64,000 nucleotides of DNA from Escherichia coli. GTDB taxonomy: Bacteria > Pseudomonadota > Gammaproteobacteria > Enterobacterales > Enterobacteriaceae. The stretch lies in the NCBI RefSeq assembly GCF_029227855.1, contig NZ_CP074356.1. One strand, 5' to 3'. Made by a program: the position numbers. Positions 56,901 through 59,900 of the stretch are shown here, one piece after another (the stretch's first letter is position 1; each line of letters begins with the position of its first letter).

Positions 56901-59900
56901 CGACCAGCGTCCAGCGGAGAAATTCGCCCAGCAGATGTATGAGACGCGCTATGCTGATGACCGCACGAAATTACTGCAAGAAAATCAGATTGCACAGTTT
57001 ACTGCCGCAGATGCGCTGGCTGCCGATCGCCAGTTGTTTTCATCTCCAGCGGATATCACGTTTGTCATTGTCGGTAATGTCGCAGAAGACAAACTCGTGG
57101 CGTTAATTACGCGTTACTTAGGATCAATCAAACACTCTGATTCGCCATTAGCCGCAGGTAAACCATTAACTCGCGCGACGGACAACGCATCGGTTACTGT
57201 AAAAGAACAAAATGAACCTGTGGCACAGGTTTCACAGTGGAAGCGTTATGATTCCCGGACACCTGTAAATCTGGAGACGCGTATGGCGCTCGATGCTTTT
57301 AACGTCGCACTGGCAAAAGATCTACGCGTTAATATTCGTGAACAGGCCTCTGGGGCATACAGCGTTTCTTCTCGCCTCTCGGTTGATCCTCAGGCCAAAG
57401 ATATCAGTCATTTGCTGGCTTTTACTTGTCAACCAGAACGACATGATGAACTGTTAACGTTAGCGAATGAAGTGATGGTTAAGCGTCTGGCTAAAGGGAT
57501 CAGTGAGCAAGAACTGAACGAATACCAGCAAAACGTTCAGCGCAGCCTCGATATCCAACAGCGTAGCGTTCAACAATTAGCGAACACCATTGTAAATAGT
57601 CTTATTCAATATGACGATCCTGCAGCATGGACTGAGCAGGAGCAATTATTGAAACAAATGACGGTAGAGAATGTTAACACTGCCGTTAAACAATATCTTT
57701 CTCATCCGGTGAATACCTATACCGGAGTATTATTGCCAAAATAATAACAGCCCCGTCAACACCTTGTTGGCGGGGATTTTAGCAATATTCGACATTTTTA
57801 TGTAATAATTTTATAAATGCGTTCAAAATAATAGTCGAGTGCTAATAATGATATTTTAATGTCTGATTTTTACGCGATAATTCAGGAGACATAGAAAGCG
57901 CATAAAAATAACAACATAAAACACCTTACTACCACCAAGCAATTCTCTATTGTATTGTTTTTTAATGAAAAAACATTATTCTCGTAATATTTCACGATAA
58001 ATAACATTAGGATTTTGTTATTTAAACCAGAGTCCTTTGCACTTGCTTACTTTATCGATAAATCCTACTTTTTTAATGCGATCCAATCATTTTAAGGAGT
58101 TTAAAATGGATAAGAAGCAAGTAACGGATTTAAGGTCGGAACTACTCGATTCACGTTTTGGTGCGAAGTCTATTTCCACTATCGCAGAATCAAAACGATT
58201 TCCGCTGCACGAAATGCGCGATGATGTCGCATTCCAGATTATCAATGACGAATTATATCTTGATGGCAACGCTCGTCAGAACCTGGCCACTTTCTGCCAG
58301 ACCTGGGACGACGAAAATGTCCATAAGTTGATGGATTTATCCATTAACAAAAACTGGATCGACAAAGAAGAATATCCGCAATCTGCAGCAATCGACCTGC
58401 GTTGCGTAAACATGGTTGCCGATCTGTGGCATGCGCCTGCGCCGAAAAATGGTCAGGCCGTTGGCACCAACACCATTGGTTCTTCCGAGGCCTGTATGCT
58501 CGGCGGGATGGCGATGAAATGGCGTTGGCGCAAGCGTATGGAAGCTGCAGGCAAACCAACGGATAAACCAAACCTGGTGTGCGGTCCGGTGCAAATCTGC
58601 TGGCATAAATTCGCCCGCTACTGGGATGTGGAGCTGCGTGAGATCCCTATGCGCCCCGGTCAGTTGTTTATGGACCCGAAACGCATGATTGAAGCCTGCG
58701 ACGAAAACACCATCGGCGTGGTGCCGACTTTCGGCGTGACCTACACCGGTAACTATGAGTTCCCGCAACCGCTGCACGATGCGCTGGATAAATTCCAGGC
58801 CGACACCGGTATCGACATCGACATGCACATCGACGCCGCCAGCGGTGGCTTCCTGGCACCGTTCGTCGCCCCGGATATCGTCTGGGACTTCCGCCTGCCG
58901 CGTGTGAAATCGATCAGTGCTTCAGGCCATAAATTCGGTCTGGCTCCGCTGGGCTGCGGCTGGGTTATCTGGCGTGATGAAGAAGCGCTGCCGCAGGAAC
59001 TGGTGTTCAACGTTGACTACCTCGGTGGTCAGATTGGGACTTTCGCCATCAACTTCTCCCGCCCGGCGGGTCAGGTAATTGCACAGTACTATGAATTCCT
59101 GCGCCTCGGTCGTGAAGGCTATACCAAAGTACAGAACGCCTCTTACCAGGTTGCCGCTTATCTGGCGGATGAAATCGCCAAACTGGGGCCGTATGAGTTC
59201 ATCTGTACCGGTCGCCCGGACGAAGGCATCCCGGCGGTTTGCTTCAAACTGAAAGATGGTGAAGATCCGGGATACACCCTGTACGACCTCTCTGAACGTC
59301 TGCGTCTGCGCGGCTGGCAGGTTCCGGCCTTCACTCTCGGCGGTGAAGCCACCGACATCGTGGTGATGCGCATTATGTGTCGTCGCGGCTTCGAAATGGA
59401 CTTTGCTGAACTGTTGCTGGAAGACTACAAAGCCTCCCTGAAATATCTCAGCGATCACCCGAAACTGCAGGGTATTGCCCAGCAGAACAGCTTTAAACAT
59501 ACCTGATAACGTTTAACGGTAACGGTGTCCCGAAACGAACCCGTTTCGGGACAATTTCCAAAGTCTGTTCACTGGCATTAGCAACGGAAAATATTGTTCT
59601 GAATACGCTTCAGAACAAAACAGGTGCGGTTCCGACAGGAATACCGTTTTAGGGGGATAATATGGCTACATCAGTACAGACAGGTAAAGCTAAGCAGCTC
59701 ACATTACTCGGATTTTTTGCCATAACGGCATCGATGGTAATGGCTGTTTATGAATACCCTACCTTCGCAACATCGGGCTTTTCATTAGTCTTCTTCCTGC
59801 TATTAGGCGGGATTTTATGGTTTATTCCCGTGGGACTTTGTGCTGCGGAAATGGCCACCGTCGACGGCTGGGAAGAAGGTGGTGTCTTCGCCTGGGTATC

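Follow-up and report, generated by a model that had tools for sequence, protein, structure and literature searches.

A stable stem-loop in the gadB-gadC spacer of Escherichia coli coincides with published RNA 3' ends and may delimit a gadB-only mRNA

The window analysed here is a stretch of 64,000 nt of Escherichia coli DNA (contig NZ_CP074356.1, assembly GCF_029227855.1), which carries gadB and gadC on its + strand; all window positions refer to that strand. The gadBC genes are the core of the most effective acid-resistance system of E. coli. GadB is a soluble enzyme, glutamate decarboxylase B, and GadC is a membrane antiporter that exchanges glutamate for γ-aminobutyric acid (GABA). The spacer between the two genes contains a perfect 12-bp stem-loop, hereafter H1. 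Transcripts whose 3' end lies 4 nt beyond the H1 stem occur in vivo, and the alignments indicate that the stem has been retained in evolution while its sequence changed. By analogy with characterized mRNAs, we propose that H1 may be the 3'-terminal stem-loop of a gadB-only mRNA from the gadBC operon and would act mainly as a barrier to 3'-to-5' exonucleases, a reading to which we give about even confidence.

Structure of the hairpin and RNA 3' ends at its edge

The features needed to describe H1 are listed below.

58106..59506, + strand: gadB coding sequence (glutamate decarboxylase B), 1401 nt, the length of K-12 b1493
59507-59661, + strand: gadB-gadC spacer, 155 nt, of the same length in K-12
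59507..59525, + strand: 19 nt between the gadB stop codon and H1, TAACGTTTAACGGTAACGG, mostly conserved in Escherichia
59526..59537, + strand: 5' arm of H1, TGTCCCGAAACG (RNA UGUCCCGAAACG), from inverted-repeat search, folding and covariation
59538..59541, + strand: loop of H1, AACC, site of the common E. coli polymorphism C59540G
59542..59553, + strand: 3' arm of H1, CGTTTCGGGACA (RNA CGUUUCGGGACA), from inverted-repeat search, folding and covariation
59554..59557, + strand: tail of H1, AUUU, with a published Term-seq 3' end at U59557
59662..61197, + strand: gadC coding sequence (glutamate:GABA antiporter), from comparison of open reading frames and annotation
61223..61251, + strand: canonical intrinsic terminator of the operon, GGGAGCGAUAAUUCAUCGCUCCC followed by UUUUUC, used as internal comparison for H1

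The gadB gene ends with the stop codon TGA at 59504-59506, directly followed by TAA, and the K-12 RefSeq record has nothing annotated inside the spacer. A preliminary description of this DNA had noted a stable stem-loop between gadB and gadC, and the inverted-repeat search, folding and comparison with shuffled sequences confirmed its presence; the flanking genes also lie where they had been placed. The limits of the hairpin needed correction. It had been drawn with a loop AAC and a span of 59527..59551, but the string as written covers 59527-59552, its right arm (CCGTTTCGGGAC) took in one base of the loop AACC, and with the additional U-A pair 59526/59553 the stem reaches 12 bp.

H1 starts 19 nt after the gadB stop codon and consists of two arms of 100% complementarity, which form a perfect 12-bp stem, and a loop of 4 nt. 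The bare 28-nt element folds at -19.9 kcal/mol. In a 41-nt context the folding energy was -21.1 kcal/mol (z = -4.4), and none of 200 shuffled sequences was as stable (0/200). The 64-kb window contains only two perfect stems of 12 bp or more whose loops measure 3-10 nt, compared with a mean of 0.02 in 100 dinucleotide shuffles. The other perfect 12-bp hairpin lies at 45958-45988 (TTCTTCTGCTGT-CATCCGC-ACAGCAGAAGAA), and perfect hairpins of 10-11 bp are found elsewhere in the window at positions 2754, 3053, 5970, 6083, 34029, 52597 and 62669.

The stem of H1 has the properties of an intrinsic terminator stem, which is GC-rich, about 5-14 bp long and closed by a short loop. Its tail, AAUUUCCAAAG (AAUUUCCA), contains 3 U in the first 8 nt and falls short of the U-rich tract of 7-8 nt that characterizes intrinsic terminators. 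A consensus terminator scan of the + strand made no call at H1. With 3 U in 8 nt and no call by the scan, the earlier statement that the hairpin has no T-tract was essentially right. A score of the d'Aubenton-Carafa type gave +1.5 or -8.2 for H1, depending on where the stem boundary was placed, and is borderline compared with +33.6 for the gadC terminator. Likewise, nT was 2.2-2.7 for H1 versus 4.8 for the gadC terminator.

The preliminary description had named the occurrence of RNA 3' ends at the hairpin as a test, and uniform read-through without them as the refuting outcome. Such ends were found in two sets of published tables, which rules out the refuting outcome. We converted window positions to K-12 coordinates as 1570645 - (window position - 59506). 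A 3' end at NC_000913.3 1570594(-) appears in the Term-seq data of Adams et al. 2021 (PMC7815308, Supplementary file 1, sheet M63 0.4), with an average of 33,816.8 reads and the sequence ...GTCCCGAAACGAACCCGTTTCGGGACAATT[T]CCAAAGTCTG. This end corresponds to window position 59557, i.e. the third U of the tail, 4 nt beyond the stem of H1. It carries the label 'orphan' because it lies 51 nt after the gadB stop codon, and the 'primary' class stops at 50 bp past the gene (PMC7815308). In the same M63 sheet, the end of the gadC terminator at K-12 1568900(-), window position 61251, has 70,553 reads (PMC7815308).

The TRS tables (PMC10687069, Supplementary Data 2) contain a terminus at 1570588-1570598, corresponding to window positions 59553-59563, with the dominant position at 1570592, a signal of 0.819 and the label 'Alternative primary in TU, gadB'. 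The p-values of its replicates were 1e-24, 1.7e-17 and 6e-27, and the signal of the gadC terminator was 1.0 (PMC10687069). To judge from the order of the sheets, the gadB row is probably a re-analysis of the Term-seq data of Dar & Sorek (strain BW25113, exponential phase in LB). In BioCyc 25.5, which the TRS authors used, gadB is never the last gene of a transcription unit (PMC10687069). Hence, the gadB-only isoform appears to be un-annotated although its 3' end stands in published tables. We found no discussion of a gadB-gadC hairpin or terminator in the literature searched, where 'terminator' in papers on the gad genes refers to cassettes and plasmids. The supplements of Dar & Sorek 2018 in PLoS Genet (PMC5927463) mention neither gadB nor gadC, and the TERMITe supplements gave no match.

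Conservation of the stem within and beyond Escherichia

In an alignment of 7 Escherichia sequences, the sequence of H1 changed faster than its flanks, while the pairing was retained. H1 reads GCCCCGGG...CCCGGGGC in E. albertii, where the loop is larger (12 nt), and GCGUCCCG...CGGGGCGC in the lineage of SCPM-O-B-8794. Both sides had changed in 4 of the 12 pairs of H1, with compensatory changes in E. albertii and in a cryptic clade. Paired cells made up 93% of the alignment of H1, compared with 29-51% when the 3' partners were slid, and RNAalifold found H1 independently. The tail differs among lineages: it reads AAUUUCC in E. coli, AAAUUCC in E69, AAACUCC in E. albertii and GCAUUCC in the SCPM lineage, so that the U-run is not conserved. 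That the hairpin is conserved and the U-run is not argues for a conserved function that needs no U-tract. Escherichia sp. MOD1-EC7003 (locus L005, 819-1009) has three changes in H1, all in the 5' arm, which weaken the stem, and single-base deletions elsewhere in the spacer. These changes may be assembly errors or signs of a decaying locus.

Within the species, the spacer was present in 5405 of the 5426 complete E. coli genomes and is single-copy, occurring at one place per genome (5407 genomes). Among the 5408 spacer matches, five were on plasmid-typed records; one genome had two copies, and 19 genomes had no match. Alleles were counted over 55 nt around H1, and about 340 records fall outside the counted alleles, which are as follows.

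Allele identical to the window: 3592 records
Loop change C59540G: 1105 records
G59537A together with A59538C, which opens the apical pair alone: 362 records
T59514G, upstream of the stem: 5 records

The polymorphisms avoid the lower stem, and at least 11 bp were kept in all of the variant genomes inspected (10/10). A natural allele without H1 is found in E. coli KC-Dl-1 (L094, NZ_CP063046.1, 2495-2510), where a deletion of 119 bp between two TATTG repeats has taken the last gadB codons, the stop codon, H1, the linker that follows it and half of the second hairpin of the spacer (H2, see below). The deletion joins gadB to the distal spacer, and gadB of this strain is annotated as a frameshifted pseudogene.

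Outside Escherichia, 42 loci from a GadC scan were read over 400 nt upstream of gadC, and gadB lies directly upstream in 38 of them. Of the 33 loci whose gadB-gadC spacer measures 68 nt or more, about 27 contain a strong hairpin (-13 to -32 kcal/mol, 9-17 bp) that is unrelated to H1. Most of these hairpins begin at +10 to +30 relative to the gadB stop codon, with two at +36 and +42, and most of them have no U-tract. No hairpin was found in the five loci with spacers of 34-49 nt. The gadBC loci come in two designs, mostly with spacers of about 70-170 nt and a strong hairpin soon after gadB, and in a minority with hairpin-free spacers of 34-49 nt (L008, L016, L018 from Advenella, L020 from Kosakonia, and L053). 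Furthermore, gadC occurs without an upstream gadB in four of the 42 loci, from Morganella (L041), Aureimonas (L058), Cetobacterium (L077) and C. perfringens (L079).

A hairpin also follows gadA, the paralog of gadB (K-12 NC_000913.3 3665780-3666260, minus strand; L088, about 345-385). It has a stem of 15 bp, CCGAAUGCCCAGC...GCUGGGCAUUCGG, lies ahead of gadX, and folds in its 81-nt context at -29.6 kcal/mol (z = -6.0). Like H1, it is located 19 nt after the stop codon and precedes a gene on the same strand, and it is even stronger than H1. In contrast, its sequence, its loop of 13 nt and its tail (UUGCUUAUU) are unlike those of H1. The homology of gadA and gadB stops at the stop codon and, hence, the two hairpins are not copies of one another.

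Other elements of the gadB-gadC spacer

The 155-nt spacer as a whole is unusually structured, with a folding energy of -50.8 kcal/mol (z = -4.05). The following elements lie downstream of H1.

59556..59589, + strand: tentative middle hairpin (UUCCA...CGGAA), from the RNAalifold consensus, within a linker that is well conserved in Escherichia
59594..59618, + strand: H2, a perfect 10-bp stem (UUGUUCUGAA / UUCAGAACAA) with loop UACGC, from inverted-repeat search and folding
59626..59647, + strand: H3, a small hairpin with imperfect pairing that lies upstream of the gadC ribosome-binding site, from folding and alignment
59652..59657, + strand: gadC Shine-Dalgarno sequence GGGGGA, 4 nt before the AUG, from direct reading of the sequence; its counterpart in other genera is the consensus AGGAG

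The linker between H1 and H2 (59558-59593, CCAAAGUCUGUUCACUGGCAUUAGCAACGGAAAAUA) is more conserved across Escherichia than H1 itself. E. albertii shows 2 differences in the 36 nt of the linker, versus about 10 in the 28 nt of H1. The linker may harbour a weak middle hairpin or a binding site. Support for the middle hairpin is weak, as one of its pairs alternates between G-C and A-U, yet is A-C in E. coli.

A single compensatory change in H2, from U-A to C-G, is seen in the lineage of SCPM-O-B-8794, while three other Escherichia lineages carry C-A mismatches. H2 sits 44 nt upstream of the gadC AUG, with an RNase E-like motif AU↓AUU directly on its 5' side (59592/59593). It could shield the 5' end of a processed gadC mRNA in the manner known from papBA. 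The consensus scan gave a terminator-like call for H2 on the minus strand. The pairs of H3 are invariant and, hence, the alignment speaks neither for nor against this hairpin.

When the full spacer is folded to minimum free energy, the H1 tail AUUUCC (59554-59559) pairs with GGGGAU (59653-59658) at the gadC Shine-Dalgarno sequence. This predicted pairing hints that the gadC ribosome-binding site is partly masked in read-through transcripts. The UCC of the tail is invariant in the genus, and the alignment lends no support to the pairing. The search for small open reading frames in the spacer gave only four mechanical ones, of 22-33 amino acids with TTG, GTG and ATG starts, three of them antisense. 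An internal gadC promoter was considered and rejected; the weak match CCGACA-18-GATAAT at 59632-59661, which overlaps the ribosome-binding site, was no better than matches in shuffled sequences.

Origin of the 3' end and comparison with known systems

Two precedents underlie the proposed role of H1 as an exonuclease barrier. In E. coli mRNAs that are processed or terminated by Rho, stem-loops lacking a U-tract fix the steady-state 3' ends, to which longer transcripts are trimmed by exonucleases (PMC6061677). Moreover, 3' structures between cistrons stabilise the upstream one once an endonuclease has cut further downstream, as in malE-malF (PMC5927463). H1 shares with protective 3' stem-loops a stable structure in the spacer, a steady-state RNA 3' end at +4 nt and conservation of the structure in relatives that keep the gene pair. 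By this analogy, some gadBC transcripts would lose their 3' part, either when RNase E cuts within the AU-rich spacer or a poorly protected gadC, or through termination further downstream. RNase E-like RN↓WUU motifs are present in the spacer downstream of H1. The shortened transcripts would be trimmed by PNPase (polynucleotide phosphorylase) and by RNase II back to H1, where trimming would halt. The gadB segment would then outlive the gadC segment and accumulate, and GadC would be supplied by intact read-through transcripts. A minor share of the ends may arise directly from weak intrinsic termination at AAUUU. In this way, the mRNA of the decarboxylase would probably be kept above that of the antiporter from one promoter, and H1 would set the GadB:GadC ratio. 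We favour a barrier as the conserved function because the tail is not conserved and the hairpins of most genera are poor in U.

Several observations weigh against this reading. We found no data on half-lives, exonuclease mutants or RNase E for gadBC in the literature searched and, hence, the barrier step is drawn by analogy. The mapped end lies exactly at the end of the sole U-run, a position just as consistent with weak intrinsic termination. In Yersinia rohdei, Serratia sp. H1w, Citrobacter sp. FP75 and Comamonas, canonical terminators with a U-tract are found in the place of H1. The two datasets disagree on the strength of the end, and neither is calibrated: the local TRS signal is 0.82, whereas the read count of Adams et al. 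is about half that of the gadC terminator. The latter authors list the H1 end in the M63 sheet only, and it has no entry in their LB sheets (PMC7815308). The evolutionary evidence comes from an alignment of just 7 sequences, in which the observed number of covarying pairs was reached by 13 of 500 shuffles. Furthermore, template-switch mutation (quasipalindrome correction) can make concerted changes in a palindrome without selection, and given this possibility the covariation overstates selection somewhat.

H1 might instead be a leaky intrinsic terminator, at which RNA polymerase pauses at AAUUU, part of the transcripts is released and the rest is read into gadC, with the hairpin protecting the released end only secondarily. 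We regard this as the main rival, less probable than the barrier. The GC-rich lower stem and the tetraloop have typical terminator geometry, the 3' end falls on the last U of the tail, and the score with a 12-bp stem is borderline but non-negative (+1.5). The U-tract versions in the four taxa named above occur at the same position, and such sites can switch mechanism through their U content (Dar & Sorek, PMC6061677). However, the tail has only 3 U in 8 nt and leaves the consensus scan silent, and the end lies 4 nt from the stem, in contrast to the U-rich segment of 7-8 nt of intrinsic terminators (PMC6061677). Moreover, E. albertii (AAACUCC) has lost the U-run and other Escherichia lineages have a reduced one, with the hairpin kept, and a U-tract is missing in most other genera. 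Rho could also supply the shortened transcripts, by terminating transcription in the 155-nt untranslated spacer or early in gadC when gadC is poorly translated, followed by trimming to H1. This would be a special case of the barrier model, follows the general behaviour of Rho-dependent E. coli transcripts (PMC6061677) and agrees with the long untranslated spacer after the gadB stop codon. We consider it unlikely, as the successive 80-nt windows downstream of H1 have C/G ratios of 1.06, 0.75, 0.75 and 0.79 and thus no bias of C over G, and the structured spacer (z = -4.05) disfavours the loading of Rho. The gadBC operon does not appear in the list of Rho regions of Adams et al. (LB, optical density 0.5), which is uninformative since their LB sheets contain no gadBC 3' end at all (PMC7815308).

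Two further explanations do not treat H1 as a plain barrier or terminator. The 28-bp palindrome might act as DNA, either by serving a dimeric regulator as its operator or by forming a cruciform, or it might be neutral and kept perfect by template-switch mutation. It is indeed a perfect palindrome in the DNA, and quasipalindrome correction is generally known to yield concerted changes of both arms. We judge this explanation very improbable, however, as an RNA 3' end lies at the 3' edge of the palindrome in two data tables, and unrelated hairpins take this place in many genera and also follow gadA. In addition, the half-sites have changed in E. albertii (GCCCCGGG, with its 12-nt loop) and in the SCPM lineage while pairing was kept, which is the opposite of what is expected for a protein site, and the palindrome is no repeated element but occurs once per genome. 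A REP/BIME repeat (repetitive extragenic palindrome or bacterial interspersed mosaic element) was ruled out on the same ground, as H1 is single-copy per genome and the window holds no other exact copy of its arms. A scan of positions 57500-62000 with Rfam covariance models, at E-values up to 10, gave no match in the spacer. Alternatively, the whole spacer, with H1, the linker, H2, H3 and the ribosome-binding site, might form a conserved module of several hairpins with a control function, instead of a passive barrier. Acid, temperature, a small RNA, an RNA-binding protein that recognises the linker, or some similar condition or trans-acting factor would then modulate the translation of gadC and the read-through or processing at H1. 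Hints in this direction are the listing of the end in M63 but not in LB, the conserved linker, and the pairing of UUUCC with GGGGGA of the gadC Shine-Dalgarno sequence in the minimum-free-energy fold; we give this idea little credence. If true, GadC could be set independently of GadB, for example for glutamine-dependent acid resistance, which needs GadC and not GadB.

The preliminary description had offered the hairpin as a partial terminator or an RNA-stability element. In this hedged form of an either/or, the suggestion is upheld by the 3' ends, the compensatory changes and the hairpins at the same position in other genera. GadC is likely needed in smaller amounts than GadB. A gadB-only mRNA defined by H1, if true, would explain how unequal outputs are obtained from one promoter. 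For the engineering of GABA production and acid tolerance, the stem and tail of H1 would be an obvious dial for the GadB:GadC ratio.

H1 is an uncharacterised example of an established class of elements, of the ordinary operon-internal kind. It resembles the malE-malF type (PMC5927463) in that a stable stem-loop follows directly after the promoter-proximal cistron of a soluble protein, presumably needed in the larger amount, with a 3' end right after the stem, a membrane transporter encoded downstream and a structure conserved in relatives. The malE-malF element, in contrast, is built of REP repeats (PMC5927463), whereas H1 is unique and single-copy. With the terminal stem-loops that have no U-tract (PMC6061677), H1 shares a terminator-like energy and geometry, a reduced U content and a precise 3' end a few nt past the stem. 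It differs from them in being internal to an operon, where gadC requires read-through, and in having no C-rich, rut-like region downstream. Finally, H1 is similar to leaky or attenuating intercistronic terminators in its hairpin and U-run, in the end at the last U and in read-through that feeds the downstream gene. Unlike in these terminators, the tail of H1 contains only three U and varies within the genus, and the score is borderline.

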